Shown piece by piece: positions 3,646 to 20,470 of a stretch of DNA of 26,063 nucleotides. Every line of letters begins with the position of its first letter. The stretch's first letter is position 1. The notes under the pieces are model-generated. The model saw only the letters and a program-made list of their open reading frames with translations, did no database searches and was not told the DNA's origin. Position numbers and translations under genes: made by a program. Origin of the DNA: Desulfobacterales bacterium S5133MH16 (GTDB lineage: Bacteria; Desulfobacterota; Desulfobacteria; Desulfobacterales; UBA11574); assembly GCA_001751005.1 (NCBI GenBank), contig MAXL01000486.1:1-26063 (forward strand). Reading direction: 5' to 3'.

Positions 3646-3733
3646 CCATAATTTTTTACAGTTGAATCATCAGATTGTATGATACCATAAACTCTATTTC
3701 ATCGAGTTTCAAGTTTTACCGAAGAGTGAAGAA

Positions 3734-3887
3734 TTGATGGCTTCGTAAAAGTCCGATTTAGACGGTTTCGTAAAAAGTTCAAATTCAAGGCGTGCAAATT
3801 TTGCAATCATGAGGCATACTTATCGTACGTTGAATGATTGTGAAATGCAGCACAACGCAGAAGTTGGACTTTTTACGAGACCGTCAA
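3734..3887. mobile_element. MITE-like palindromic element, type A copy 1
   Basis: Imperfect ~22-bp terminal inverted repeats TTGATGGCTTCGTAAAAGTCC / GGACTTTTTACGAGACCGTCAA, with a second internal copy of the left end. About 93% identical by hand alignment to the reverse complement of 12104-12258. No coding capacity. Confidence 0.85.
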
Positions 3888-4055
3888 GAATTTGGCCCGT
3901 TGTTTTAGTAACCCCATTGCCGCACTTTCGCAATAAATTTTAAAGATCAACACTCTTCCTCCTTGAAACTATTCGTGCAGGCAAAACATAAAATTATAGA
4001 CACCCCCCGTAAAAATTAGCCGGCATCTTCTAAAGTCGTTATGTTTTCAAAATTT

Positions 4056-4086
4056 ATTGTTTGACACAATCTAACAATTGTATTAT
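4056..4086 (+). promoter_or_regulatory. Possible -35 box (TTGACA 4061-4066) inside an ATTGT-N5-ACAAT palindrome upstream of the kor/hdr cluster
   Basis: Sequence ATTGTTTGACACAATCTAACAATTGTATTAT. The -10 spacing is not canonical (TATTAT at 14 bp). Confidence 0.35.
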
Positions 4087-4142
4087 TCGATGCTGTTTTT
4101 ATTTAAATTTATAGAACCGCCTAAATAATTGGAGAAATGCCT

Positions 4143-4442
4143 ATGGAATTCTGGAGGGTTCCACTTGACGCGGACACAATACAAGTCTCTCTAGGCATCG
4201 TGCACATCCTGGAGGATCGATGTAAAGGATGCGGATACTGTATCGAGTACTGCCCCAAGCAGGCTCTGGAATTTTCTGCAAATTTCAACCAAAAAGGATA
4301 TCATCCCCCGGTGGTTATAAAGCCCGAGGAATGTGTTAACTGTCACTACTGCGAAATCATTTGCCCGGAGTTTGCTATATTTTCAGTAGAAAGCCCACAA
4401 ACGACCAAACCCGGCCAATCCGAAACCAACCATGCGATATAA
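4143..4442 (+). CDS. korD: 2x[4Fe-4S] ferredoxin-like delta subunit of 2-oxoacid:ferredoxin oxidoreductase
   Basis: CKGCGYCIEYCP and CVNCHYCEIICP motifs; first gene of the oxidoreductase cluster. GGAGA RBS spacing favours ATG 4143 over 4137. Confidence 0.8.
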   Translation: MEFWRVPLDADTIQVSLGIVHILEDRCKGCGYCIEYCPKQALEFSANFNQKGYHPPVVIKPEECVNCHYCEIICPEFAIFSVESPQTTKPGQSETNHAI

Positions 4443-4513
4443 ACCGGCAATCATCATTTTAACTATATGAAACCACGGAAGCACACAGATTATAAAGGTT
4501 AGACAAGAGACAA

Positions 4514-5659
4514 ATGAAACCAGCGGTCCTTACCGGTGAATATTTTATGACCGGCGACGTTGCCTGTGCCGAAGGCGCACTGGCAGCAGGATGCCGTTTT
4601 TTTGGGGGATACCCCATAACACCAGCCACTGAGATCGCCGAACGGATGGCTATCCGGCTTTCTCATGTTGACGGATGTTTTATCCAGATGGAAGACGAAA
4701 TCGGCGCCATGGCCTCAGTACTTGGTGCATCATGGGGCGGTATGAAAAGCATGACCGCCACTTCCGGTCCCGGTTTCAGTCTTATGATGGAAAATATTGG
4801 TCTGGGGATCTGTACAGAAACTCCCTGTGTTGTGGTAAATGTTCAGCGCGGCGGTCCCTCTACAGGTCTTCCTACCCATGGTGCCCAGGGCGACATGATG
4901 CAGGCCCGATGGGGATCACATGGGCACTATGAAATTATTGCCCTAGCGCCGTCCTCACCCCAGGAAATATTTTATTTAACGATCACAGCGTTTAATCTGA
5001 GTGAAAAATATCGGTTGCCGGTTCTCATCATGACCGACGAAATCATTGGGCATATGAGTGAAAAAGTCATTATACCCGAGGCAAAATCAATTAAGACTGT
5101 ATCACGTCCCAAACCCAAAGGGAGAAAAGACCGCTTCAAACCCTTTGCACCCGGGCCTAACGGTGTCGCACCCATGCCGGCGGCAGGGGAAGGCTATAAC
5201 CTGCACATTACTGGTCTTACCCACGATGAAAAGGGGTACCCGGTAATGACCGTAGAAGCTCAGACGGAGATGATGGCCAGGATTACCGAAAAAATCCAAA
5301 GAAATTTAGACGACATCATTCGGACAGATAGTTACCTCCTCGAAGATGCTGAAATTGCCGTTGTTTCTTATGGAATTTCGGCCCGAACCAGCATTGCCGC
5401 GGTAGCTGAAGCCAGAAAGCTGGGGATCAAGGCCGGACTTTTGCGTCTGGTGACGATCTGGCCTTTTCCCGAAGATCAGATTCGCAAGTTGGCAGACAGA
5501 GTCAAGGGATTCGTGACGGTAGAAATTAATCTGGGTCAGATTCATCGGGAGGTTGAACGATGCGCAGGGGGCAAGGTTCCTATCTTTTTAGTCGGACATC
5601 CCGGCGGGACGATTATCCATCCGGACAGCGTTGTTAAAATGTTGATGGAGGCCTTTTAA
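4514..5659 (+). CDS. korA: 2-oxoacid:ferredoxin oxidoreductase alpha subunit
   Basis: GYPITPATE, QMEDEI, TATSGPGFSLM and QRGGPSTGLPT motifs. Substrate specificity is not determinable from sequence. Confidence 0.93.
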   Translation: MKPAVLTGEYFMTGDVACAEGALAAGCRFFGGYPITPATEIAERMAIRLSHVDGCFIQMEDEIGAMASVLGASWGGMKSMTATSGPGFSLMMENIGLGICTETPCVVVNVQRGGPSTGLPTHGAQGDMMQARWGSHGHYEIIALAPSSPQEIFYLTITAFNLSEKYRLPVLIMTDEIIGHMSEKVIIPEAKSIKTVSRPKPKGRKDRFKPFAPGPNGVAPMPAAGEGYNLHITGLTHDEKGYPVMTVEAQTEMMARITEKIQRNLDDIIRTDSYLLEDAEIAVVSYGISARTSIAAVAEARKLGIKAGLLRLVTIWPFPEDQIRKLADRVKGFVTVEINLGQIHREVERCAGGKVPIFLVGHPGGTIIHPDSVVKMLMEAF

Positions 5660-5662
5660 ACC

Positions 5663-6535
5663 ATGGAAGAAATCCCGACACCATCCAAAGAACAACCCCA
5701 TCATCCCCTGGATGATCTTATCCGCACGGATCGCATTCCCCATATCTGGTGTCCGGGGTGCGGAATCGGAACGGTGTTTTCTGCGTGTCTGGCTGCTCTG
5801 AAAGCAAGCGGTATCAACCTTCAAAAAACTGTGATGGTCTCGGGAATCGGCTGTTCGGGACGTGCCGCCGGTTATGTTAAGCTGGATTCCTTTCATACAA
5901 CTCACGGGAGGGCCATACCCTTTGCCACAGGATTAAAACTTGCCAACCCCGAACTTAATATCGTGGTTTTCAGCGGTGACGGCGATCTCTTCGCCATCGG
6001 CGGAAACCATTTTATCCATGCAGCCCGGCGGAATATGGATATAACGGTTATCTGTGTAAATAATTTAAATTATGGCATGACCGGCGGCCAGGTGGCCGCA
6101 ACCACACCTTACCTGGCGAAATCGACAACAACACCTGCCGGAAATCCTGAAACTCCTTTTAATCTGCCGTTAATGGCCTATGCGTGCGGCGCCACGTATG
6201 TGGCCCGATGGACCATGCTGCACATCAGGGATCTTACGGATTCCATAACAGAAGCGCTTTGTAAAAAAGGGTTTTCCTTTATTGAAGCACTTTCTCCGTG
6301 TCCGGTAAATTACGGTCGACGCAATAAACAAAAACCCCTTGATATGTTAAAGTTATACCAGGAAAAAGCGATTATCAAAAATGATGCGGATCCTGCTACA
6401 CTTGATATAGACTTTGAAAAGGGCATCATTTTGGGCAAATTTATCGATCTGGATCGACCAACGTTTATTGAAAATTATGACAAAATCTACCGGCCGAGCC
6501 GTCTTCAGGAAAACGTTCCGGAGTTGAACTCATGA
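5663..6535 (+). CDS. korB: 2-oxoacid:ferredoxin oxidoreductase beta subunit (TPP-binding)
   Basis: WCPGCG, SGIGCS, GDGD...GGNH and NNLNYGMTGGQ motifs, plus SPCP. Confidence 0.93.
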   Translation: MEEIPTPSKEQPHHPLDDLIRTDRIPHIWCPGCGIGTVFSACLAALKASGINLQKTVMVSGIGCSGRAAGYVKLDSFHTTHGRAIPFATGLKLANPELNIVVFSGDGDLFAIGGNHFIHAARRNMDITVICVNNLNYGMTGGQVAATTPYLAKSTTTPAGNPETPFNLPLMAYACGATYVARWTMLHIRDLTDSITEALCKKGFSFIEALSPCPVNYGRRNKQKPLDMLKLYQEKAIIKNDADPATLDIDFEKGIILGKFIDLDRPTFIENYDKIYRPSRLQENVPELNS

Positions 6536-7140
6536 CCGACTCTCAAAATCATAAACAGAAAAAAAAGGAAATTATAATCACAGGCTTTGGTGGGCAGGGT
6601 ATTATCCTTGCGGGTATTATCCTGGGAAAAGCGGCTGCCATTGGTGAACACAGGGAAAGCACACTTGTCCAGTCATACGGGCCCGAGTCTCGTGGAGGGT
6701 CGTGTAGTGCTCAGGTTGTCATTTCCGATGAAATGATTCATTACCCTTATGTCAATCACCCGGATATTTTGGTCTGCATGTCTCAATCAGGCTATGATAA
6801 ACTCATCAAACAGATGAAGGAAAACGGAACGTTAATCATTGATCAAAATCTGGTTCACCCGGCCCGTGGATTGAAATGTGACTTTTTTTCTATCCCTGCC
6901 ACCAGCATGGCCGAAGAGCTTGGACGAGTAATGATTGCCAATATCATTATGCTCGGTTTTTTAACAGCCGTCACAGAGATTATTTCCATGGATGCAGCCC
7001 AAAAATCCGTCACAGAATCAGTTCCAAAGGGCACTGAAAAACTTAACACCAAGGCCTTTAAAAAAGGTCATGACTATGGTCTGGCCACGCTCAAGGGACG
7101 ACAGAAAAAGGCCGCGGGTCAAGCAGGAGCGATTTCATGA
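6532..7140 (+). CDS. korC: 2-oxoacid:ferredoxin oxidoreductase gamma subunit
   Basis: GFGGQGIILAG, QSYGPESRGG and ANIIMLG motifs; ATGA overlap with korB. Confidence 0.92.
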   Translation: MTDSQNHKQKKKEIIITGFGGQGIILAGIILGKAAAIGEHRESTLVQSYGPESRGGSCSAQVVISDEMIHYPYVNHPDILVCMSQSGYDKLIKQMKENGTLIIDQNLVHPARGLKCDFFSIPATSMAEELGRVMIANIIMLGFLTAVTEIISMDAAQKSVTESVPKGTEKLNTKAFKKGHDYGLATLKGRQKKAAGQAGAIS

Positions 7141-10100
7141 AACGTCCCAAAGAACGGCTTCACCGGGTCACGGTTATCGGAGCGACACCGGCCGGCATCG
7201 CCGCAACCAACAAGCTTGGAGAACTGGGCATTCCCCTTACCCTTGTTGATTCTGATTATGATCTGGATAAAAAACTTTCCCGGGATGAGTGGGTTCTGAA
7301 ATCAGGTGTTCCTTTAAACCATGCCCATCGACCCGGGCTTATCAGAATTTTGAGAAACCCTGGCATTCGATGCATTTTTCCCGCAAAAATCTCCTCGATT
7401 AAGCATAATCGACAAGGATTCCGTGTTCACCTAAACATCCTTCAAACCTTCGTAGATCAAGACAAATGCACCCTTTGCGGTCGTTGTGTTGAAATCTGCC
7501 CGGTTCTGCTTCCCGGAGGAGAAAAAGCTATCCAAATTAACAGTCAGCGAAGCCTTCCCGGCAGGCCGGTCATAGACAAGCGGTGCCGGCCACTCTGCCA
7601 GGCAAACTGTCCGCTAGGGGTAAACGCCCAGGGTTACATCGCCCTTGTAAAAGCCGGCAGGTTTGCCGAAGCGCTTGACCTTATCAGGGAAAATAATGTT
7701 CTGCCCGGCATTTGCGGACGCATTTGTACCCACCCTTGTGAGAACTTTTGCAGAAGGGGTGAACTTGATGAGCCTGTCGCCATTATGGATATTAAGCGAT
7801 TTGTGGCAGACTATGATCGCTCCGATCCCAAAGACATAAAATTATCTGATGTTCATAACAGGTCAGAAAAGATCGTCATTATCGGCTCAGGCCCGGCCGG
7901 GATTGCCGCCGCTGCGGACCTGGCCCGATTCGGCCATGATGTAACCGTTTTCGAAAAAGAGAAAGAAGTTGGCGGGTTGCTCCGTTACGGAATTGGGCGT
8001 CATCGCCTGCCCAAAGATATCCTGGATGTTGATCTTGAGTATATTAAGAAACTTGGTGTACGATTCATTATCGGCCATGCCATTGATCTGGTCCAAGATA
8101 TGGATCGGCTCAAAAAAGACTTTGACGCTGTCATTATCTCCATTGGGACGTGGGCTGACCTAAAATTAGGGGTCCCCGGAGAGATGCTGGAAGGGGTTGA
8201 AGGCTGCCTCTCTTTTTTGGGACGTCTCTATCGCGGCGAAATAAAAGCACTAAACGAAAAAGTAGCGGTGATTGGGGACGGCAACGCCGCATTTGACCTG
8301 GCCCGCACACTCTTGCGTCTGGGTGCCCATGTCACAATTCTATCCTGGTTCCCTGAAGATCTTATCCCTGCCAATACCGAAGAAATTGGGGCCACCAGGG
8401 AAGAAGGAATTCTGATTCGGGACTGCACCCAAACCATTGCGTTCTTAGGTCAAAACGGTAAGCTCAATCGGCTGCGTTGCATGCCCACCAAACCCGGAGA
8501 ACCTGATGCTCAGGGTATCCCCTGGCCGGTCATTATCCCCAATAGCCAGCCCTTTGAACTCGAGTTTGACCGGGCTTTTGTTGCCATCGGTCAAAGGGGC
8601 GCACTCCAGGGCAAAAACAATTCGTTCAGCTTTACTGTTTCGGAACAAGGATTGATTGAGGTTGATGAATATTTGCGCACGAATTTATCGAATGTCTATG
8701 CTGTGGGAGATGCGGTTTCAGGACCCTCATCCGTTGTTGAGGCCATGGCCGCAGGCAGGAGGGTTGCCCGCACCGTTCATAGCGATATTTGTAAAGAGGA
8801 GGTCTTTTACCCTCAGCTCTTAAGACCGGAGGACAAAGATTTTCCGGAAATTCCGGCGGACATACCTTCTCAGGCACGGACGATTATGCCGGAAAGGCAA
8901 CCTGCGGTGCGCAAGGATAGTTTCTTGGAAGTCTCCATGGGCCTGAGTGAACAACAGGTCTTTTTGGAAGCAGCCCGTTGTCTTCAATGCGGAGTCTGCA
9001 GCGAATGTCTTCAGTGCGTTGATGCGTGCGGTGCAATCCTTGCAATAAACCATGTACAGGCTCCGGAAGAAACCATTGAACAAACCGGTGTGGTTATCAT
9101 TGCAGACCCGGAATTAGCCCCGAAGATAAAGGGTGAGGATGTCATCCGAGTGTATGGGCCCAGAGCGGCAAAGCCGGATGTTAACGCCATGTTTGTTCGA
9201 GGCTTTGCCGCAGCTTCCCAGGCCATGATATTGCTTGGGGGAACCTTACAACGGCCAAAAGGATATGGTTTGTCGTTTTCCACTCCTGATCCGGGTCTTT
9301 CTCCGGAAATCCGAGTGGGAGTTTTTGTCTGTAAATGTAACAATACCTTTGGATGGCTTGATGACATGAATCAATATGTCGCGGGATTACAATCTCAAGA
9401 AGATGTGGTTCATGCTCAAGTTGTAAACTCGGCCTGTACTCATGAAGGATCATCGAGTATTATCCGAACGATTCGTGAAAAAGGACTCACCCGCGTGGTA
9501 CTGGCATCCTGTGTCTGCTGCCCCCTCAATTTTATTTGCAGCGCCTGTACGGACCAGCGAAGCCGTCTGAAAAACGCCTTGTTTACCGGGACAGGGATCA
9601 GTCGTTCAATGGTGCAGACATGCAACTTAAGAGGAGAAGTCCTTCGTCTTTTAAAACAAAATAAGTCCCTGGCCGTGAAAAAATTTACCGGACTCATCGA
9701 TCGTTCCGTCAATCGGGCAAGAAGATTGAAACCGCTTCCGGATCTTATTAGAAACTATAATTTCACTACGGCGGTAATCGGGACCTCCGAAGTCGCCATA
9801 AGCAGTGCATTGAGCCTTGCCCAAGCAGGGCTGGAGGTATTTTGGTTCCCACAGTCGCAAAAACCGCCGAATCAAATTCCTGATCATCCCAATGTGCACA
9901 GCTTCGGAGGCTTTTCCATCAAAGAATTGAGCGGAACTCTTGGTAATTTTCACATCATCGCAGAATCAGGCAATTCCCGACAAATAATAACTGTGGGAAC
10001 GGTCATCCTGGATGAAAAGTCAAGAAAGAACATTAAGTATATTCACCAGGAGGGTCTGCCGGGCCGAACCGTATCTTCTTCTATGCAGGACATGGGCGTG

Positions 10101-10496
10101 CCCGGAATACCATTCTTTTATCCGGGGTCAACCGCCATTTCCGGACTTTTTTTAGCTGAACCGCCGGGCATCAATGTCTCTAACCGGAAAAAAGGTGCTG
10201 CCGCTGCAGCTCAGGCGGCAGCCATTATGCCGCGGGAACCGCGCCATAACAAAGGATATACCGTTGCAGTGGATGAAAGCCTGTGCCGAAGTTGTGGACG
10301 CTGCATTCGCGTCTGCCCTTATCAGGCGGTGACATTGCACAGAAACGCTATTGACGGATGGGCCGCCTGGGTGGACGAGACTCTGTGTAAAGGCTGCGGC
10401 AATTGCATTTCCGTATGTCCCACCAATGCCGCGGACAGCCCGTATCGTAACCAGGAATTTCTCGAACAGACACTTGAAAAAATATTGCTGACGTAG
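7137..10496 (+). CDS. Large HdrL-like flavoprotein: degenerate HdrA segments surrounding a GltD-like FAD/NAD(P)H module, with several [4Fe-4S] motifs
   Basis: GltD-like CQANCPLG..CGRICTHPCE, GSGPAG (FAD), GDGNAAFD (NAD(P)H) and EAARCLQC motifs. HdrA N-domain-like GVFVCKC..SAC..ASCVCCP..CNLR. Ferredoxin motifs CTLCGRCVEICP, CRSCGRCIRVCP and CKGCGNCISVCP. ATGA overlap with korC. Confidence 0.8.
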   Translation: MKRPKERLHRVTVIGATPAGIAATNKLGELGIPLTLVDSDYDLDKKLSRDEWVLKSGVPLNHAHRPGLIRILRNPGIRCIFPAKISSIKHNRQGFRVHLNILQTFVDQDKCTLCGRCVEICPVLLPGGEKAIQINSQRSLPGRPVIDKRCRPLCQANCPLGVNAQGYIALVKAGRFAEALDLIRENNVLPGICGRICTHPCENFCRRGELDEPVAIMDIKRFVADYDRSDPKDIKLSDVHNRSEKIVIIGSGPAGIAAAADLARFGHDVTVFEKEKEVGGLLRYGIGRHRLPKDILDVDLEYIKKLGVRFIIGHAIDLVQDMDRLKKDFDAVIISIGTWADLKLGVPGEMLEGVEGCLSFLGRLYRGEIKALNEKVAVIGDGNAAFDLARTLLRLGAHVTILSWFPEDLIPANTEEIGATREEGILIRDCTQTIAFLGQNGKLNRLRCMPTKPGEPDAQGIPWPVIIPNSQPFELEFDRAFVAIGQRGALQGKNNSFSFTVSEQGLIEVDEYLRTNLSNVYAVGDAVSGPSSVVEAMAAGRRVARTVHSDICKEEVFYPQLLRPEDKDFPEIPADIPSQARTIMPERQPAVRKDSFLEVSMGLSEQQVFLEAARCLQCGVCSECLQCVDACGAILAINHVQAPEETIEQTGVVIIADPELAPKIKGEDVIRVYGPRAAKPDVNAMFVRGFAAASQAMILLGGTLQRPKGYGLSFSTPDPGLSPEIRVGVFVCKCNNTFGWLDDMNQYVAGLQSQEDVVHAQVVNSACTHEGSSSIIRTIREKGLTRVVLASCVCCPLNFICSACTDQRSRLKNALFTGTGISRSMVQTCNLRGEVLRLLKQNKSLAVKKFTGLIDRSVNRARRLKPLPDLIRNYNFTTAVIGTSEVAISSALSLAQAGLEVFWFPQSQKPPNQIPDHPNVHSFGGFSIKELSGTLGNFHIIAESGNSRQIITVGTVILDEKSRKNIKYIHQEGLPGRTVSSSMQDMGVPGIPFFYPGSTAISGLFLAEPPGINVSNRKKGAAAAAQAAAIMPREPRHNKGYTVAVDESLCRSCGRCIRVCPYQAVTLHRNAIDGWAAWVDETLCKGCGNCISVCPTNAADSPYRNQEFLEQTLEKILLT

Positions 10497-10499
10497 AAA

Positions 10500-12083
10500 A
10501 TGGACGAATTCAAAATAATCTTATTTTTATGTAACTGGGGGCCGCATACCGCTTTCCAAACCCTTCAGGACAATGGAAGTGAAATTCCCGATGAGGTAAG
10601 TATGATTCGGATTCCCTGCACCGGAAGAATCAGCAAATCCCTTTTGTTTAAAGCGTTTGAAATGGGAGCGGATGGTGTGGTTCTGGCAGGATGTAAACCG
10701 GGAACCTGCCGATACGGCAGCGGTACGGCTACCGCCCGTGAGAATACCGAAGATACTCGGGATATTATTGGGCTTCTCGGCCTGGGAAAAGAACGGTTGC
10801 GGCATGTCACATTTCTCCCGGATGAGTCGGATCTGCTACTGCAATTTTTGAATGACTTTTGCAATCAAATCCGGTCGTTGGGCCCGAGTCCTATGGCGCC
10901 TATCCGAATACCGGAATCAGAAGTTATAAGCCGTGAGTCTGTAGCCGAAATCGTTTCTTATCATGATGCCTTTGCATGTCAGGACTGCGGGAAATGCTCT
11001 TCCGCTTGTCCTCTGGCACTGATCGGCAAACCATTCTCGCCCCGGGAACTGGTTAATTCCATCATTGCCGGTGATATGGATTCTCCTTCTGTAAACAAAG
11101 ATGTTTGGTCCTGCCTGACCTGCGGCCTTTGTTATGACCGCTGTCCATCGGCAGTTAATTTTCCCGAGTTTATGCGAGATATTCGCCACGTTATCAGAAA
11201 AAATGGGGGAAATGCTCATGAGGCGCACGGAGGCTTTTTTCAGTCTCTGATGCGAGCCATGACATCACCCGGGCTCAAAACAGAGCGATGGGATTGGCTG
11301 CCCCAAGATGCGGAGGTTGATTCCAAGAGTAAGATCCTTTTTTTCGGCGGTTGTACCCCGTACTTTGACATTTTTTTCAGAAACCATCTCGGTGTTGAAA
11401 CCCTTAATATCTTAAAAGATAGTCTTCGTCTTCTCAATTTCTTCGATATTAAACCGGCCCTGCTCCAGGATGAGCGATGCTGCGGACATGATCTTCTCTG
11501 GTCGGGAGACCAAGAAAATTTTTTAAAATTAGCAGCAATAAATGTGGATTCGATCCATAACCTTGGAATTGATGAGGTGATTACGGCTTGCCCGGAGTGC
11601 TATAGGACACTGGCCCATGATTACCCAAAACATGGGATCAAATTAAATTTCAAGGTAACCCATATCTATGAACTGCTTGAAAACGAGATCAGCAAAGGTG
11701 CGATAGATTTTAAAAAAATTGATAAAAAGATAACCTTCCAGGATTCGTGTCGTTTAAACTGGCTCGAATCGCCTGCAGATCTTCCCAGAAAATTGATCCG
11801 TCGCCTCAAGCCAAGCAGCTTCCGGGAAATGCAGAATAATGGGAGTTCGGCCATATGTTGCGGGAATTGCGCATGGACTGGATGTGATGCGTTCAGCAAG
11901 GCTCTTCAGGTCAAACGCTTGAGACAGGCCCATGCCACAGAAAGTGATCTTCTGGTCACCGCCTGCCCCAAATGCCAGATTCATCTCCGTTGTGCCATGG
12001 AAGATCCTTTTCTCGGAGAAGAACTTAAGATGGAGATGATAGACTTGACCGGTATTATTGCAAAGACCATTTACTGGGAGTAA
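10500..12083 (+). CDS. MvhD/FlpD + HdrC-like + two CCG domains fusion (HdrD-like)
   Basis: N-terminal FLCNWG, IRIPCTGR and GCKPGTCRY (MvhD-like). CQDCGKCSSACP and CLTCGLCYDRCP (HdrC-like). RCCGH/TACPEC and ICCGNC/TACPKC (CCG domains). Confidence 0.88.
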   Translation: MDEFKIILFLCNWGPHTAFQTLQDNGSEIPDEVSMIRIPCTGRISKSLLFKAFEMGADGVVLAGCKPGTCRYGSGTATARENTEDTRDIIGLLGLGKERLRHVTFLPDESDLLLQFLNDFCNQIRSLGPSPMAPIRIPESEVISRESVAEIVSYHDAFACQDCGKCSSACPLALIGKPFSPRELVNSIIAGDMDSPSVNKDVWSCLTCGLCYDRCPSAVNFPEFMRDIRHVIRKNGGNAHEAHGGFFQSLMRAMTSPGLKTERWDWLPQDAEVDSKSKILFFGGCTPYFDIFFRNHLGVETLNILKDSLRLLNFFDIKPALLQDERCCGHDLLWSGDQENFLKLAAINVDSIHNLGIDEVITACPECYRTLAHDYPKHGIKLNFKVTHIYELLENEISKGAIDFKKIDKKITFQDSCRLNWLESPADLPRKLIRRLKPSSFREMQNNGSSAICCGNCAWTGCDAFSKALQVKRLRQAHATESDLLVTACPKCQIHLRCAMEDPFLGEELKMEMIDLTGIIAKTIYWE

Positions 12084-12103
12084 TTGTTTACAATGGAACA
12101 ATA

Positions 12104-12258
12104 TTGACGGTTTCGTAAAAAGTCCAACTTCTGCGTTGTGCTGCATTTCGTAATCATTCAACGTACGAAAAGTACGCCTCATGATTACAAAATTTACACG
12201 CCTTGAATTTGAACTTTTTACGAAACCGTCTAAATCGGACTTTTTACGAGTTCATCAA
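12104..12258. mobile_element. MITE-like palindromic element, type A copy 2 (inverted relative to copy 1)
   Basis: TTGACGGTTTCGTAAAAAGTCC ... GGACTTTTTACGAGTTCATCAA. CAATATTGA spans both junctions (12099-12107 and 12256-12264). Confidence 0.85.
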
Positions 12259-12311
12259 TATTGAAGATTAACTTTTTGCAAACACTTGTACATTGAGAAT
12301 TCGATAAAGGA

Positions 12312-14756
12312 ATGAACATGAAACCTGTTACTTCAATAGATACGAAACCGCAGATGCGTATCGGTGTCTATGTCTGTCATTGCGGCTCAAATATCGCTCA
12401 GACGGTGAACTGCCCAAAAGTTTCCGAAACAGCGTCCGGGCTTGAGGACGTTGTTATTTCAAAGCATATCGCTTACGCCTGTTCCGAGCCCGGTCAACAG
12501 GAAATCCGGGATGATATTCATGAACACGGGTTGGAGCGCATTGTTGTGGCCTCGTGCTCACCGAGACTTCATGAACCCACTTTTCGACAGATGATGCAAT
12601 CCGCCGGTCTTAATCCTTATCTTTTGGAGATGGCCAATCTCCGTGAGCAATGCAGCTGGGTTCATCTGAATGAACCTGATGCAGCAACACAAAAGGCCGA
12701 AGACCTTGTAAATATGGCCGTATCCCGGGCACGATTGCTCCAGCCGCTTGAAGAGGAAAAGCTGCCGCTCACCAAACGAACCCTGGTCATCGGCGGAGGT
12801 ATTGCCGGCATTCAGACTTCCCTTGATCTTGCAGATAACGGTTATGAGGTTGTTCTGGTGGAAAAAAATGCTTCCATTGGCGGAACCATGGCCCAGATTG
12901 ACAAGACCTTTCCGACCATGGACTGTTCCATCTGAATTCTGGGTCCTAAAATGACGGATGTCGGTCGACATCCCCTGATAAAACTCTACACCCTGAGCGA
13001 AATAGTGGATGTTAAAGGCTATGTGGGTAATTTTGATGTCAGGATCTTACAAAAGGCTCGTTATGTGTCAGAGGAAGATTGCACTGCATGTGGTGACTGC
13101 GCTATGGCTTGCCCCGTAGTTCGCCCCGATGAGTTCAATCTGGGCCTATCATCGCGCAAGGCCATTTTCACCCCTTTTCCCCAGGCTGTCCCCTCGGCCT
13201 ATGTCGTCAATATCAATGAATGCTTGGGGCACAACCCCGTGGTTTGCGCAAAATGTCTCGAAGCCTGTGAAAAGGGATGCATCAATTTTCACATGTCCGA
13301 TGATGAAATCCAGGAAAGTGTGGGATCAATCATCGTGGCGACCGGACTGGAGCCGTATGATCCCACTGAGCTTGACGAATACGGATATACAAGATTCGAA
13401 AATGTCCTTACCAGTCTTGAATTTGAACGCCTTATCAATGCCGGGGGCCCTACCAAAGGAAAACTGATTCGTCCCACAGACAGAAGACTTCCTAAATCCG
13501 TGGGCTTTATCCAGTGTGTGGGCTCACGTTCCGCCAGGAAAGGCAGCAGCTATTGCTCCAATACCTGCTGTATGAACACCATTAAAAGTACACTGGTACT
13601 CAAAGAACATTACCCTGATATTGACATAAAGGTTTTTTATATCGACATTCGTGCCGTTGGCAAAGGATTCGAAGATCTCTTTATGCGTAGCCGTCGTCTG
13701 GGAGTGCATTACTTGAGAGGTTTGCCGGGCAACGTTGAAGAGCTGCCGGATCACAGTATGCGGGTTGCGGTGGAGAATACGGTCACAGGCCGGCTGGAAT
13801 TTTTCGATCTTGATATGCTCGTCTTAGCTCTCGGCATGAAGCCGGCCAAAAACACCCGGCGGCTTCAAGAAATGCTGGGGCTTCAGCTAACGGCCGACGG
13901 TTTTTTCCTGGAAGCTCATCCGAAACTCCAACCGGTTGATGCCGCCTCTCGAGGAATTTTCTATGCGGGATGCGCCGAAAGCCCCAAAGATATCAAAGAA
14001 AGCGTTACACAGGCTTCAGCGGCCGCAGTCCGTGCCATTCGCCTGATGCATAAAGGGGAAATTTACACAGAACCGATTACTTCCGAAATAGATCCCGAAA
14101 AGTGCACAGCGTGCGGCAAATGTTCTGAAATTTGTCCCTATAATGCAATTACAAAAGGTATCAGAAAAAAGACACCGTCTGTCGTGAATACGGCAGCATG
14201 CGCCGGCTGCGGCACTTGTGCCGCGGAATGTCCTTATGACGCCATTCTTATGAACCATTTTACGGACGACCAGATTAATAACCAAATCAATTCCATGCTC
14301 GAAAAAAGTTCTCAAGAAAAGATTCTGGTATTTGCCTGCAACTGGTGCTCATATGCCGGCGCGGATTACGCGGGGGTCTCACGTCTTCAATATCCTTCAA
14401 ACGTTCGAATTATCCGGACCATGTGCTCAGGGCGAGTTGACGAAAAATTTATCTTTAACGGCTTTCTTAACGGTGCGCCGGTTGTTCTGGTAAGCGGATG
14501 CCATATTGGTGACTGTCATTATATTGATGCCAACCGCTGGACCGAAAAAAGAGTTAAAAAAATACGCAAAAAAATAGAGAAACTGGGAATCAGACCCGAA
14601 CGGCTCCAGCTTGAGTGGATTAGTGCGGCAGAAGGCAATCGATTTGCCGAGATAATGGGCAGGATGGAGAAACTTCGTCAGGGTGTTTCTATACAGGAAA
14701 TCTCAGAAACAATTGAGATCCTGAAGAATCGGGAAGAAAAATCCGAGGCTCAATAA
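12312..14756 (+). CDS. hdrA: Selenocysteine-containing heterodisulfide reductase subunit A with C-terminal MvhD fusion (814 aa, U208)
   Basis: ORF-track pieces 12312-12935 and 12951-14756 share one frame and are joined by TGA at 12933-12935 in DKTFPTMDCSI-U-ILGPKM, where HdrA has Cys or Sec. Other motifs: GVYVCHCG, GGGIAG, CVGSR..YCSNTCC, and C-terminal FACNWCSYAGAD / MCSGRV / GCHIGDCHY (MvhD). Confidence 0.93.
12956..12973 (+). promoter_or_regulatory. Bacterial SECIS-like hairpin of hdrA
   Basis: Perfect 7-bp stem GGATGTC/GACATCC with GGTC loop, starting 20 nt after the UGA. Confidence 0.75.
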
Positions 14757-15829
14757 TGACAGACTGGGTCGAACAACTCCAAAACAGCGTCAACACCCTT
14801 GACAGACTGAAGGCAGTTGTCAACGTCTCCTCGGAAGAAGAAAAGGCCATAACGACTCTAAATACGAAATGGGGGACAACCCCTTATTTTGCTTCTTTAA
14901 TGGATCCGGATACCCCTGATTGTCCCATACGTAAACAGGTTATTCCTTCTATGAAAGAAACTGAGAATCGATATGGAATTTCCAACTACCTGATCTGGGA
15001 AGAAAATCGTGATACTGAGGAGATCAGACCCGACTGTATTGCCAGGCAGTATCGTGACCGCATCGCTTTCACCGTTACCGATATCTGTGCAACTTACTGC
15101 CGTCATTGTTTTCGTAAAGAACTTGTGGTTGACCGAGATCTTAAGCTTCGCTTTGATTTGGAAGAAGGCATAGAGTGGATCCGTGAACATGAAGAGATTC
15201 GGGATGTTCTCATCACCGGCGGTGACCCTTTCATACTTTCAGACCAAAAGATTGAATATCTTATTCGCAGGCTTCGAGAAATTCACCATGTAGAAATGAT
15301 TCGCTTTGGAACCCGCACACCGATTGTTTTGCCCCATCGAATTACCGATGGTCTCAAAAAGATTCTGAGCAGCTATCATCGGGTGCCAATCTGGGTGAAT
15401 ACCCAATGTAATCATCCAAAAGAAATTACGGAAAAGACGGCAAGGGCTGTTTTCAATCTCCTATCATGCGGAGTCAACGTGGGCAACCAGGCGGTCTTGT
15501 TAAAGGGGATTAATGATGACGTGAAAACGTTTAGGAAGCTTCATCAAAAGCTTTTAGCGGTTCGCATCCGTCCTTACTATGTTTTTTATTGTGAACCGGC
15601 ACCGGGAATCGATCATTTTCGGACACCGGTTGAAAAGGGGGCTGAACTTATTCGAGATGCGCTGCAGGGTCACACGACAGGTCTGGCTCAGCCTATGTAT
15701 GTCATTGCCACCAACATCGGCAAGGTTCCTTTAATGCCGGATTATTACATCATCGAAAAGAATGAAAAAGAATATACGCTGAAAAATTATCAGGGCATTT
15801 ACACAACCTGGCCGAATATGCCGGAATAA
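14756..15829 (+). CDS. KamA-family (lysine 2,3-aminomutase-like) radical SAM protein, divergent active site
   Basis: CATYCRHCFR (CxxxCxxC), DVLITGGD, RFGTRTP, GNQAVLLKGIND, RPYY and GKVP (PLP lysine). TAATG overlap with hdrA. Confidence 0.88.
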   Translation: MTDWVEQLQNSVNTLDRLKAVVNVSSEEEKAITTLNTKWGTTPYFASLMDPDTPDCPIRKQVIPSMKETENRYGISNYLIWEENRDTEEIRPDCIARQYRDRIAFTVTDICATYCRHCFRKELVVDRDLKLRFDLEEGIEWIREHEEIRDVLITGGDPFILSDQKIEYLIRRLREIHHVEMIRFGTRTPIVLPHRITDGLKKILSSYHRVPIWVNTQCNHPKEITEKTARAVFNLLSCGVNVGNQAVLLKGINDDVKTFRKLHQKLLAVRIRPYYVFYCEPAPGIDHFRTPVEKGAELIRDALQGHTTGLAQPMYVIATNIGKVPLMPDYYIIEKNEKEYTLKNYQGIYTTWPNMPE

Positions 15830-15855
15830 CCAGAATGTTTCATGATAACGGCGGG

Positions 15856-16539
15856 CTATTGATTTGGCAGGTAGGGCGTTAGATCTCGGATGTATTCTGT
15901 TAGTATTTTGAAGCCGCCATCCGTTAATACAGAAATTGCTTTTTCCTCATCTTCAGCAGCCACCCTCATAATGAGCTGATAAATGCCCGGGAACTTTTTG
16001 ACCGGCCAGGTAACCAAACTTTGGATACTGATCTGCTGATCCTTGAGGAGTCTCGAAACCTCAGCCACAACTCCGATACGGTCTTTTACCAGAACGATGA
16101 ACCGTGCACTTCCCTCATCTACGCCGATGGCACGTAGCAGCACCTCCAAAACATCGGTAGTCGTGATGATTCCTACGAGTTTTTCCGCTTCCATGACCGG
16201 CAGAGCGCTGATCCGGTTTTCCTGCATGATTAGAGCGGCAGTTTCAATGGTAGTGTCGGATGATATGGTGAGGATGTTTTTTGTCATGATCATTTCAACG
16301 GTCAACTGAGTTAATAGATAATTCAACTCATGAACGCTGAGAGTTGTGGCCGGAGAGGCCCAGCTCTGCTTAACATCTCTGTCCGAGACCAATCCAAGTA
16401 AATTTTCATTTTCATCTACTACCAGAAGGTGGTTAATCCGCTTTTCTTCAATAATATCTTTGGCTTTTATTATGGTTGTATCAGGGGAGACAGTCACAAG
16501 ATATGTATTCATAACACGACCCACGTACATAGAGGCCAC
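15856..16539 (-). CDS. CBS-pair + ACT domain protein (AcuB-like)
   Basis: Two CBS repeats (INHLLVVD..LLGLVSDRD; ISALPVM..LVGIITTTD) and a C-terminal ACT-like segment (KDRIGVVAEVSRLL..ISIQSLV). Confidence 0.88.
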   Translation of the reverse strand: MASMYVGRVMNTYLVTVSPDTTIIKAKDIIEEKRINHLLVVDENENLLGLVSDRDVKQSWASPATTLSVHELNYLLTQLTVEMIMTKNILTISSDTTIETAALIMQENRISALPVMEAEKLVGIITTTDVLEVLLRAIGVDEGSARFIVLVKDRIGVVAEVSRLLKDQQISIQSLVTWPVKKFPGIYQLIMRVAAEDEEKAISVLTDGGFKILTEYIRDLTPYLPNQ

Positions 16540-16610
16540 CTCCTTTGAGCGATAAAAACAGCCTTAACAAAACAAATTATACTATTTTTAAATGCGGAAA
16601 GAAAGAACAA

Positions 16611-16799
16611 TTATTTATGTAATTCTACGTTGTTTAAACAAAATCGTCCTTCTTCGGCATAATCTATGGCATGGAAAACACTTTCTTTTTCATATAAAAC
16701 CTGGTGACATTGTATGGCCTGTAATATTTTACAATCTTTGGCGCATTTTTCTTTAGGTTGATTTTTCTTTTGACAATTTGCACATGGAGAAGAAATCAT
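16611..16799 (-). CDS. Small Cys-rich hypothetical protein (62 aa)
   Basis: SPCANC..KCAKDC pattern; G-rich RBS (GAGGGGGG) upstream of the ATG. Confidence 0.65.
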   Translation of the reverse strand: MISSPCANCQKKNQPKEKCAKDCKILQAIQCHQVLYEKESVFHAIDYAEEGRFCLNNVELHK

Positions 16800-16922
16800 A
16801 ATGCCCCCCTCTGTTATGCTATTTTAATAACGAAAAACCATTTCCCTTAAAATTTAATTACAAATAATTTGCCGGTTTGACTGTAAAACTTAAACAAACT
16901 TTAAATCAAGATAACGCTACGG

Positions 16923-17078
16923 TTACTGAGTTTCTCCGGTGGTCTTTTTCTGGTCCTGAAAAACTTCACAGTTCTTACACCAATTGCGCATGTTCCCTTT
17001 CCTAAAAATTTCCGTGCAGACTTCACGATAATATTGCATTTTTGGATCTTTAGGACAGGTTATAAATGTTTTGCCCAT
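16923..17078 (-). CDS. Small four-Cys hypothetical protein (51 aa), below the ORF-track cutoff
   Basis: Hand translation MGKTFITCPKDPKMQYYREVCTEIFRKGNMRNWCKNCEVFQDQKKTTGETQ. AAGGA RBS 8 nt before the ATG; a canonical promoter lies just upstream. Confidence 0.65.
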   Translation of the reverse strand: MGKTFITCPKDPKMQYYREVCTEIFRKGNMRNWCKNCEVFQDQKKTTGETQ

Positions 17079-17144
17079 CTATTTTTTCCTTAAATTTTAT
17101 GATAATTTCATAATTATTAATATGTTAAATAAATTTTAAACGTT

Positions 17145-17173
17145 AATATAAAATAAAGTGTCTTGTGTGTCAA
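17145..17173 (-). promoter_or_regulatory. Sigma70-type promoter for the small Cys-protein genes
   Basis: Minus strand reads TTGACA-N17-TATATT. Confidence 0.65.
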
Positions 17174-17184
17174 GTAAAAAGATA

Positions 17185-17200
17185 CCACAATATATTGAGG
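17185..17200. promoter_or_regulatory. NrdR-box-like palindrome
   Basis: CCACAATATATTGAGG matches the full CwAtATaTwG core of the acaCwAtATaTwGtgt consensus. A degenerate second box (ATAAAGTGTCTTGTGT, 17153-17168) lies 32 bp away. Confidence 0.5.
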
Positions 17201-17384
17201 TGATTGTTAAAATGTCAGTTAAGCAGGCCATGTGGAGTTGTTCTGCTTACAACGCCGGGGCATATGGATAAATTGCTTGTTATTTCACAGTGTTGCATAA
17301 AATCTGAGATGTGTGACAAGGAGATGTAAAACGTAAAGGAACCCTTATGCCGGGCCTGATAATAAACGGGGATGATAAAAATAA

Positions 17385-17547
17385 TACCTAAGTTGAGCGA
17401 TTTTTTGCGAAGAGATGTGCTGAGATCTTGATGCATAAGAGTTCGCGAAAACCGCAGGCATACCCGTGGATATGTCGAGGATCTTCGCGGATCCGTGATG
17501 CGCAAGAGATCCGCGCAGATCGAGTAAAAAATGGCTCAATTTAGGTA
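17385..17547. mobile_element. MITE-like palindromic element, type C
   Basis: 22-bp terminal inverted repeats with 2 mismatches: TACCTAAGTTGAGCGATTTTTT / AAAAAATGGCTCAATTTAGGTA. Central ACCGCAGGCATA...TATGTCGAGGA core. Confidence 0.7.
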
Positions 17548-17570
17548 ATAGTAAGTTTATGCCGGAGCCA

Positions 17571-18020
17571 TTATTTTTCGATTCTTTTGGTCGCCGGTTT
17601 AATCATTAACCAGCGTTTTATTTTTTGAGAGATTCTTTTTAAAAGCCACTCCTGGGCCTCCGGACTCGCTTTGTCAGCTATTTGATCGGCGAGTGTAATA
17701 TCACCTGCCTGGTACCGCATATATACTTCACTCATATGCATCTCTAAATCAGCAGACAAATGTTTTGCATAAGCCAGGGCAAGTTGCCAGTGGGCAAAAG
17801 TTTCTGATTTGTCGCACTTTTCTACCAGAGCTTGAGGATGTCCGATTTTAGACTCAAGTTTGATCATAAAATTTATTGTCCGGGGGAGTCGCAGCCACTG
17901 GGGAGCGGATTTGTTTTTAGGACGCCCCACAGCCTTCCAAAAATCTGTTAAGCAAAGCAGATCATTCTTTGCCTTAATTTTATGACCTCTGTAGTTTAGA
18001 TCAAATTTTTTATAAACCAT
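17571..18020 (-). CDS. KilA-N domain DNA-binding protein
   Basis: LCLTDFWKAVG..PQWLRLPRT..TFAHWQLALAYAKHLS pattern typical of KilA-N/APSES domains. AAGGGA RBS before ATG 18020; alternative start at 18056. Confidence 0.8.
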   Translation of the reverse strand: MVYKKFDLNYRGHKIKAKNDLLCLTDFWKAVGRPKNKSAPQWLRLPRTINFMIKLESKIGHPQALVEKCDKSETFAHWQLALAYAKHLSADLEMHMSEVYMRYQAGDITLADQIADKASPEAQEWLLKRISQKIKRWLMIKPATKRIEK

Positions 18021-18147
18021 AATTTCCCTTTTGTTCCCGCTTTCTTTTTGATCCATTGGTAAAAAAAATAATAAATTTGGCTTTTTCCAAGCACATCATA
18101 TTTAGTATATAATTAGGTTGTGTGTCAAATACGGAATGTTATCTTGT

Positions 18148-18176
18148 TTGACACGGATGCACCGTTATTGTAAAAT
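18148..18176 (+). promoter_or_regulatory. Sigma70-type promoter of the MlaD-domain gene
   Basis: TTGACA-N17-TAAAAT. Confidence 0.65.
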
Positions 18177-18221
18177 TATGTTCGAATATATAATTATCAA
18201 TCGGATGGAAAGGAGTTATAT

Positions 18222-18896
18222 GTGCTGAAAAGAATTTTGGTTTTACTGATACTGCCGTTTGTTCTTCTGGCGTGTAAAGAAAATTCCCTCAACCTTAAAA
18301 TCCGGTTCCATCAGGTTCAAGGTCTGAAACAAGGAAACCGAGTCATTTTTGGACAAAATCATATCGGCACCGTCAAAAATCTGTTATATTCGAATGAAGA
18401 ATTTTTCATTGTCGATATTGCCATAAAAAAAGATTTTGCTGACCACGCCACAGAGCATTCCAGGTTTTTTATCATTACTGATCCCCAGCACAAGGAGAAT
18501 AAGGCCGTTGAGATGATCCAGATCCGTGACGGCGGAACACTGCTAAAAAATAATGCGACCATAGAAGGTTCCACCGAAACTTCAGTCTTTTTTTATCAGC
18601 TTTTTGGTGGAATTGAGAACGAACTTAAAGATTTTGAAAAACAGTTTGAACAATTCTCGAAAGACTTGAAAGGCATTCCTGAAAGCCAAGAATTCAAAAA
18701 GCTTGAAAACGAATTGCAGCGTCTGGCAGAAGAGATGAAACGATCCGGCCAAGCGGTGCAACAAAAGATAAAGGAGGAATTATTGCCGAAACTTAAAGAA
18801 GAGATGGAAAAACTCAGAAAACGGTTACACGAGTTCGGCCGTGAGGATGAGATGAAACCTCTTGAAATCGAAATGGAAAAAATTCAAAATATATAA
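18222..18896 (+). CDS. MlaD/MCE-domain lipoprotein with C-terminal coiled coil
   Basis: Signal peptide with LLAC lipobox; F..VQGLKQGNRV...IGTV MCE signature; Glu/Lys-rich helical tail; AAGGAG RBS. Confidence 0.78.
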   Translation: MLKRILVLLILPFVLLACKENSLNLKIRFHQVQGLKQGNRVIFGQNHIGTVKNLLYSNEEFFIVDIAIKKDFADHATEHSRFFIITDPQHKENKAVEMIQIRDGGTLLKNNATIEGSTETSVFFYQLFGGIENELKDFEKQFEQFSKDLKGIPESQEFKKLENELQRLAEEMKRSGQAVQQKIKEELLPKLKEEMEKLRKRLHEFGREDEMKPLEIEMEKIQNI

Positions 18897-18928
18897 CGTT
18901 ATAATTTCTTCATGAAAAACAAGAAACC

Positions 18929-18958
18929 TTGCATCGCCAAAAGGTAATATGCTATGAT
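18929..18958 (+). promoter_or_regulatory. Possible sigma70 promoter directly upstream of element B
   Basis: TTGCAT-N18-TATGAT with an extended -10 TG. Confidence 0.45.
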
Positions 18959-18965
18959 ATATAGT

Positions 18966-19110
18966 TAGTGTCCCTCCATAAATGAGGATTTTTGTTCAAG
19001 ATCAAGGCATGTGAAAAAAATAACCACAGGCATATGTTTAATATTCCGAGAATTATTTTTTGAGCATAACGCAGAGATTGGGCAAAAAGACCATTTATGG
19101 AGGGACACTA
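18966..19110. mobile_element. MITE-like palindromic element, type B
   Basis: Perfect 19-bp terminal inverted repeats TAGTGTCCCTCCATAAATG / CATTTATGGAGGGACACTA; 145 bp; TA at both ends. Confidence 0.85.
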
Positions 19111-20266: not shown

Positions 20267-20301
20267 TTGTTGATAAGATCGATTTTTTACGAATTCATCA
20301 A
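20253..20301. repeat. Minimal type A remnant (two ends, no core)
   Basis: TTATGAGTTCGTAA ... TTTTTTACGAATTCATCAA. The right end plus following TATT matches the type A copy 2 end TTTTTACGAGTTCATCAATATT. Confidence 0.55.
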
Positions 20302-20311
20302 TATTATACTC

Positions 20312-20470
20312 TTAATTTTTCTGCGATGTTTTGTTTTTGCCATTACCTTTATTGCTTGTCACCTGACAAGAATCTTTCAGTCAGGTGGAAATTCCTAATT
20401 TTGGCAGGATATAAGCCTGCAAAAGATACCAGATCCCTACGATGATCACCAACCCAATGATTTCTTTCAT
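20312..20470 (-). CDS. Candidate 52-aa membrane-anchored selenoprotein (U30, UxxxxC)
   Basis: AAGGAG RBS 7 nt before the ATG. Hand translation MKEIIGLVIIVGIWYLLQAYILPKLGIST-U-LKDSCQVTSNKGNGKNKTSQKN; in-frame TGA at 20383-20381 followed by a hairpin. If the UGA is a stop, it is a 29-aa membrane peptide. Confidence 0.65.
20355..20370 (-). promoter_or_regulatory. SECIS-like hairpin of the small ORF
   Basis: CTTGTC-AGGT-GACAAG starting 10 nt after the UGA, extendable by ATT/AAT across a bulged C. Confidence 0.6.

Follow-up and report, generated by a model that had tools for sequence, protein, structure and literature searches.

Miniature inverted-repeat transposable elements of Desulfobacterota with a shared, structured core in exchangeable ends

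Introduction

The closest described counterparts of the repeats reported here are Correia/NEMIS of Neisseria, ERIC/IRU of enterobacteria and RUP of pneumococcus, which are about 100-170 bp long and non-coding, carry terminal inverted repeats (TIRs) flanked by a target-site duplication (TSD), occur in tens to hundreds of intergenic copies and form a long hairpin when transcribed. Such repeats are considered to be mostly parasites (pneumococcal repeats: Croucher et al. 2011, PMC3049150). In this study, we analysed four elements of this general appearance in a contig of Desulfobacterales bacterium S5133MH16 (GenBank assembly GCA_001751005.1, contig MAXL01000486.1, 26,063 nt, forward strand). This stretch, termed the window in the following, is a whole contig of a metagenome-assembled genome (MAG) with 574 contigs and 3.02 Mb that is 88.6% complete. 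The elements share the above properties with Correia, ERIC and RUP, but differ from them in that one interior occurs in several unrelated sets of TIRs with differing TSD lengths, that this interior does not derive from the one partner insertion sequence (IS) identified, and that its structure covaries phylum-wide; no sequence relation to the known repeats was seen.

Escherichia coli BIMEs consist of interchangeable sub-modules, possess RNA structure and are co-transcribed with their neighbours. Similarly, the BOX elements (boxA-boxB-boxC) are made of interchangeable sub-modules, adopt extensive secondary structure as RNA and share transcripts with neighbouring genes (PMC3049150). In contrast to both, the elements described here are bounded by transposase-specific TIRs with TSDs, and their modules are nested, hairpin in hairpin, rather than placed side by side, so that the likeness is architectural only. 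According to work on TIMEs and Tn3-family mosaics (Szuplewska et al. 2014, PMC4133298), unrelated DNA lying between short paired ends of ISs or transposons can be mobilised by them, which creates mosaics. The cargo in that case is arbitrary, whereas here it is always the same structured core.

The interior of MITEs (miniature inverted-repeat transposable elements) is usually treated as an arbitrary leftover of the parent IS. Here, it is the ends that are exchanged, whereas the interior stays conserved and shows RNA-like covariation; what is new is a set of MITEs that keep a structured interior rather than their ends. The repeats probably represent a phylum-wide superfamily of non-autonomous DDE-type MITEs, composed of a shell and a structured core that acts single-stranded. 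The shell would be the outer module of about 27-45 bp per end, including the TIRs, and would decide which transposase moves the element. The core would be the inner module, a common sequence of approximately 95 nt that folds on one strand. A literature search retrieved no description of these elements, and a preprint on diversity-generating retroelements that mentions MITEs turned out to be unrelated. A search of Rfam 15 gave no window match at the gathering score; at E<=10, only miRNA- and snoRNA-like hairpin noise far below the cut-offs appeared, and the core matches no family in this database.

Four mobile elements in the window and their relatives

Core copies were collected from the window's own genome with BLASTN and then with an iterated nhmmer profile of the element interior. 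A covariance model, R1, was built from the core alignment A2 (not to be confused with the MITE copy A2), which holds 48 diverse cores chosen by an apical-motif pattern and excludes types A and C. The features of the window are as follows:

3736-3885, + strand: type A MITE, copy A1, 150 bp (from the sequence and a 95% inverted match to copy A2), one of more than 100 in this genome; layout: outer-left TIR, inner-left TIR, core (+ strand), right TIR
3729-3735 and 3886-3892, no strand: TSD of copy A1, AAGAATT (7 bp), read from the sequence
3775-3871, + strand: rod-like core of copy A1; R1 match, model positions 1-94, E 2.7e-9
12106-12256, - strand: type A MITE, copy A2, 151 bp, in the orientation opposite to A1
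12100-12105 and 12257-12262: TSD of copy A2, AATATT
12120-12216, - strand: rod-like core of copy A2; full-length R1 match, E 7.9e-11
17387-17545, + strand: type C MITE, 159 bp, TIR CCTAAGTTGAGC.../...GCTCAATTTAGG
17382-17386 and 17546-17550: TSD of the type C MITE, TAATA
17416-17517, + strand: divergent core of the type C MITE with GC-richer stems; R1 match, model positions 1-94, E 4e-4
18968-19108, + strand: type B MITE, 141 bp (18966-19110, 145 bp, with the flanking TA)
18992-19085, + strand: rod-like core of the type B MITE; R1 match, E 2.4e-24; included in core alignments A1 and A2
20274-20305, - strand: solo type A outer-TIR remnant without core (direct-repeat families D1/D2, inverted repeat I5)

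All four elements proposed in a preliminary description of this DNA are present, with limits correct to within about 2 nt, and they are true MITEs with TIRs and TSDs. The ordered motifs that it had noticed in types A, B and C exceed chance expectation, as R1, run against the whole 3-Mb genome, recovers A1, A2, B and C without having been seeded with A or C. Given that these matches are full-length and on the expected strand, the likeness of the three types reflects homology or strict structural equivalence rather than chance. The stem arms given there also proved real, namely CAATCAT/ATGATTG in A1, TAATCAT/ATGATTA in A2, AAAAAATAA/TTATTTTTT in B and TTCGCGAA/TTCGCGGA in C. Its count of three TIR types was too low, as this genome alone contains no fewer than seven (A, A', B, D, E, G, C and others). 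The TIRs measure 17-26 bp in A, C and D; the TIR of the window's B element, TAGTGTCCCTCCATAAATG (repeat I12), is a perfect 19-bp match (19/19) if the flanking TA is counted. In type A, a tandem pair of TIRs on the left faces a single one on the right, three copies in all, and A1 and A2 are 95% complementary over 141 nt. The shell ends read GACGGTCTCGTAAAAAGTC in A, GAGACCTTTGAAAAATG in D, CCTAAGTTGAGCG in C and GAGCCACTTTCAAAACG in I.

The mobility of the elements is evident from their target sites. The length of the TSD depends on the shell: it is 6-7 bp in 22 of 29 complete A copies (6 bp in 16, 7 bp in 6), 5 bp in 14 of 24 D copies, 4 bp in 7 of 10 I copies and, judged by eye on two copies, 5 bp in C. 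Shell B/E has a 6-bp duplication of the form TAnnTA, which is exact in 12 of 28 copies and decayed in the remainder. Furthermore, A1, A2, B and C are all missing from the orthologous sites in G103, a genome of the same genus with about 88% nucleotide identity in the syntenic region, with a 2-nt gap at the C site; A1 is also missing from the orthologous site of a second congener, G022.

Two side observations concern sites of insertion. At the site of A2 (window 12097-12306), G103 carries another hairpin repeat, GGTGTCAGGTGTCAGG...CCTGACACCTGAAACC (L196, G103:C155, about 35239-35445), and the same intergenic spot has thus been struck by two unrelated repeats. In the L090:2701 region, a D-type element is inserted in an A-type element, i.e. 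a MITE within a MITE.

The family is abundant in its own genome. BLASTN yielded more than 60 close copies of A, about 10 of B and about 6 of C, and approximately 40 further matches to the B interior alone (72-78% identity), which are elements with other termini. Iterated nhmmer raised the number to at least 186 core copies in 3.0 Mb, comprising 75 of type A, 42 of A', 21 of D, 17 of E, 11 of B and further types including G and H. With R1, sister copies of C were found (E 2.7e-6 and 1.3e-5), as were additional subfamilies including B2 with GC-rich stems, A'' and J. The elements are small (141-159 bp) and non-coding; open reading frames (ORFs) of at least 90 aa contain only 7 of the 186 core copies. 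Across the Desulfobacterota, R1 gave matches in 25 of 151 sampled genomes and in 21 of the 111 genera represented, often with dozens of copies. At least 118 loci contain the apical motif, and almost all of them belong to Desulfobacterota MAGs labelled as Desulfobacterales, Desulfobacteraceae, relatives of Desulfobulbales, Desulfatiglandaceae, Syntrophaceae and similar. C-type copies in other families of the order are 93-94% identical, indicating that the elements spread horizontally. The model R1 together with the shell catalogue explains the fragmentation of assemblies of cold-seep and sediment sulfate reducers into hundreds of contigs and would allow these repeats to be annotated.

A core with compensatory, strand-specific pairing

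The core of about 95 nt forms a rod, in which helix P1 is followed by an internal loop (CAAGG/AACGC), the helices P2 and P3, a second loop (ACCRCA/GAGGA) and an apical hairpin. Its conserved motifs are mostly unpaired: the 5' side carries CAAGG, the 3' side AACGC, and the apical hairpin is surrounded by ACCRCAGG...YCGAGGAU. RNAalifold applied to 66 cores of all types predicted a rod, with compensatory changes at 21 of 23 pairs. In a separate test, a hand-drawn structure of 33 pairs was imposed on the 48-core alignment and compared with 500 shuffles and with controls in which the 3' partner was slid. The proportion of paired cells was 93.5% (83.8% in the shuffles) and the covariation score 0.332 (0.151), neither of which was reached by any of the 500 shuffles. 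Cells changed on both sides numbered 141, versus 37 in the shuffles, and such changes occur at 16 of the 33 pairs, while sliding of the 3' partner left at most 47.6% of the cells paired. The C-G to T-A stem change between A1 and A2 is one such compensatory case, and U·G intermediates are found in other A copies. The earlier proposal that selection acts on the structure is therefore borne out, as pairing and covariation exceed all shuffles and the slid controls collapse. We infer that the core is kept by selection on lineages of elements and not on single insertions.

The pairing is also specific to one strand. Across the 33 pairs, G·U is present in 148 cells and A·C in 35, 18 of the latter at a single doubtful pair; four positions are mostly wobble and never A·C. 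The minimum free energy of the RNA averages -29.6 kcal/mol in the forward and -21.7 kcal/mol in the reverse direction, with the forward strand folding better in 60 of 66 cores, and R1 matches are essentially one-stranded.

The constancy of CAAGG, AACGC, ACCRCAGG and CGAGGAT across shells might alternatively mark a site in double-stranded DNA for a nucleoid protein such as IHF or HU, or for an accessory factor common to several transposases, the pairing being a by-product of a palindrome. Correia elements do have a central IHF site. We regard this explanation as quite improbable, since the left and right motifs are not complements of each other and hence form no palindrome, and P2 and P3 vary freely yet stay paired, which a double-stranded site would not need. 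Moreover, inspection by eye revealed no clean IHF consensus (WATCAANNNNTTR) in any type.

One core in exchangeable shells

The core has been exchanged among shells. Interiors of different shell classes reach identities of 0.97 (B-G), 0.94 (D-E), 0.93 (D-I), 0.92 (E-I) and 0.89 (B-D), and 19 of 80 elements have their closest interior in an element with a different shell. The break points are sharp and located at the base of P1, with approximately 90 nt at 90-94% identity lying between ends that cannot be aligned. No solo core was found, as every complete core has a shell; apparent exceptions are explained by an extra 38-nt module, by the three-TIR layout of A and A', which shifts the inverted-repeat window, or by truncation. 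The view of the preliminary description that the core was spread by several transposases and is not the debris of a single IS agrees with these data, given that near-identical cores sit in unrelated shells, that TSD lengths are specific to the shell, and that the ISs matching shell B/E (see below) lack the core.

Plain descent followed by decay is a further explanation for the similarity of the types: all would come from one IS or MITE, and the interior would be conserved merely because of recent horizontal spread. Copies that are 93-98% identical across families of the order do testify to such recent spread, and the TIRs of B and G, being about 65% alike, could be diverged homologues. We nevertheless consider this very improbable. 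The stems of the subfamilies differ at many positions yet pair, as reflected in the 141 double-change cells; unrelated shells enclose interiors of 90-94% identity; the TSD length varies with the shell; and the ISNCY_1 ISs have only about 18 bp in common with the MITEs.

Partner insertion sequences

The TIR of shell B/E (about 18 bp, TAGTGYCC...) corresponds to the ends of ISs with an ISNCY_1 transposase (NF033593), which we take to be the ISDol1 group of ISfinder. Of the 121 genomes sampled from the order, 25 carry genes for this transposase. The complete ISs are 1.7-1.9 kb long, have the TIR TAGTGCCTGAACGAAAAC or TAGTGTCCATCC... and generate a TAAATA-type duplication as in the B/E MITEs, i.e. 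the 6-bp TAnnTA type. One IS matching B/E resides in a genome of the same genus (L120), whereas the gene is absent from the window's own assembly, a MAG of the completeness given above. Apart from the TIR of about 18 bp (about 30 bp in L137), the ISs and the MITEs have nothing in common. R1, run with filters off, found no core within the ISNCY_1 ISs with mapped ends (L121, L122, L125, L132, L137), and its two significant matches in these loci are neighbouring MITEs beyond the IS ends. An origin of the MITEs as internal-deletion derivatives of an ISNCY_1 IS was rejected, because their interior does not stem from subterminal IS sequence and the core is missing from the ISs.

An IS with matching ends is thus at hand for B/E; the shells A, C and D do not correspond to this IS, and a search of the sampled genomes revealed no partner IS for A, C, D or I. 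The TSD lengths of 6-7, 5, 5 and 4 bp of A, C, D and I suggest that these shells are moved by transposases other than that of B/E. For shell D, pairs of TIRs spaced 0.6-3.5 kb apart in the own genome and the collected loci were adjacent MITEs only, and a pattern search of five near-complete genomes gave no IS-sized pair. The corresponding search for shell A in five genomes returned 32-130 matches per genome and three IS-sized pairs, none of which is an IS. These three pairs enclose host genes between two MITEs, namely those of an enoyl-CoA hydratase, a MerR regulator and a B12/radical-SAM protein, with inward-facing A-type TIRs 1.1-2.0 kb apart (L172, G041:C222; L173, G040:C1; L174, G041:C164). 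Such arrangements could in principle act as composite transposons.

Two further candidates were discarded. ISNCY_2 (NF033594), considered as the mobiliser of A, C or D, is rare (4 of 121 genomes) and has unrelated ends. A 454-aa IS4-like DDE transposase (PF01609) adjoins a decayed C-like element in the own genome (L119; C37:98-1462 and 1672-1811), and its ends show no convincing match to the C TIR. In L133 (G104:C218), an ISNCY_1 IS at 190-2075 has a solo C-type TIR on one side and a complete C-type MITE on the other; it may have inserted into or beside a C element.

A strand-specific hairpin is also what would be expected of a REPIN-like or attC-like substrate that is moved as a folded single strand by an HUH (Y1/RAYT) enzyme or a tyrosine recombinase, and the own genome does contain six Y1_Tnp matches, of which five exceed the Pfam cut-off. 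This is the least probable of the explanations considered here. TIRs with TSDs of fixed length are typical of DDE transposition, the B/E shell consists of DDE IS ends, and the five contigs with the six Y1_Tnp matches hold not a single core copy. An HUH/RAYT substrate, which had been among the functions suggested initially, is therefore not supported.

RNA or single-stranded DNA

We infer that the core of these MITEs acts as a single-stranded hairpin, and slightly prefer an RNA produced by read-through of a neighbouring gene over single-stranded DNA (ssDNA), by analogy with the Correia, ERIC, BOX and REP repeats. Such an RNA hairpin would render insertions harmless or mildly useful, and the conserved purine-rich loops (AAGGA, CAGGA, GAGGA) would bind a putative factor. 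A bolder version, which we advance only tentatively, holds that the core is a strand-specific RNA or ssDNA 'chassis' with a dedicated partner, repackaged in the ends of at least five transposon families, and that this is the reason for the phylum-wide success of these MITEs. If this were true, the core would be a structured hitch-hiker for which transposases serve as interchangeable vehicles. Should the core be functional in mobilisation or gene expression, it would constitute a widespread, uncatalogued structured element and provide a natural experiment on the causes of success in MITEs.

A number of results weigh against a phylum-wide superfamily with a single-stranded core, or against RNA as its active form. 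The partner ISs of A, C, D and I were not found in the genomes searched. The invariance of the apical motif among the 48 seeds is partly an ascertainment effect, since they were fished with that motif; types A and C, which were not selected in this way, also have it in a modified form. Recent mutations within families are inconsistent in their ratio of G·U to A·C (40:13 in A, 15:18 in A' and 7:13 in D), and the strand signal cannot separate RNA from ssDNA, because G·T wobbles also stabilise ssDNA hairpins. Orientation offers a point in favour of RNA, in that B, D and E copies are sense to neighbouring genes in 31:13 cases in the own genome and motif-bearing copies in other genomes in 53:30 (p = 0.015), but the bias is not significant when only co-directional flanks are considered (22:20 and 26:20). 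Type A is unbiased (about 32:34) and A' leans antisense (14:27). No sigma-70-like promoter was detected within the elements, so any RNA depends on read-through; no convincing internal terminator was seen in them either. RNA data were available as assembled contigs of four metatranscriptome runs from sediment and cold seep, which are strandless and do not resolve copies. In favour of RNA, coverage of the elements in these four runs was much higher than that of the genes beside them, with a depth of 24-257 in bins with elements, about 270-635 at the C element and 0-10 in most gene bins. Against this, the values add up the signal of numerous copies and organisms, the contigs part ways at the edges of the elements, and carry-over of DNA is possible.

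Several of these findings fit another explanation, in which selection acts on mobility alone: a core extruded as ssDNA or as a cruciform would fold back and bring the short TIRs together, turning any grafted IS ends into an efficient transposase substrate. A length of 150 bp is about one persistence length of double-stranded DNA, which makes looping hard. A folding aid of this kind would account for the operation of the same core with at least five shell types of differing TSD lengths, for the shell around every complete core, for stems that covary while their sequence is free, and for the missing internal promoter and the unbiased orientation of A, the commonest type. In our judgement it is possible, if rather unlikely. 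A cruciform uses both strands and predicts no excess of G·T over A·C, whereas 148:35 was observed; its simple version needs no asymmetric loops of conserved sequence, and the sense bias of the B, D, E and I copies is left unexplained.

A separate observation was made close to the C element. At window positions 16823-17423, metatranscriptome depth amounted to 606 in run X15 and 1183 in run X17, and a promoter close to the consensus, TTGACA-17-TATATT, adjoins on the minus strand (17173-17145). This depth is probably due to genes for small Cys-rich proteins and not to the C element.

Additional modules and remnants

Smaller modules are found within some of the elements. Some cores are interrupted at fixed points, after CAAG and after ACCAC, by two GC-rich mini-hairpins, each about 32 nt long (CCTCCGGCCCGTAGGG... 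and CCCCAGTACGATCTGCCGG...). They were located in the own genome at C292:123-359, C318:2355-2591, C312:1-200, C102:3004-3241 and C265:99-336, and also in L080 and L107. The same mini-hairpins occur 24 times outside cores, within other repeat families, and resemble a second tier of mobile modules, distinct and smaller. An AT-rich hairpin module of 38 nt, GCCTGCCCAGTTAAATCCG...AACCGGGG, is positioned exactly at the junction of shell and core, on the left in D-type elements and on the right, inverted, in one B-type element (own genome: C452:6025-6229, C199:7529-7733, C531:3276-3480, C293:4429-4633 and the C521:8074 region; also L070 and L114).

Remnants with a shell or TIR and no core were also encountered. 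At C134:622-660 of the own genome, a D element consists of the shell only, with GAGACCTTTGAAAAATGTTCAATTTTG joined straight to CAAAGGTCTC; apparently, it arose by deletion between short TTTTG repeats present at both junctions. In the window, the solo type A outer TIR at 20274-20305 lies a few bases ahead of a small ORF region (20312-20470).

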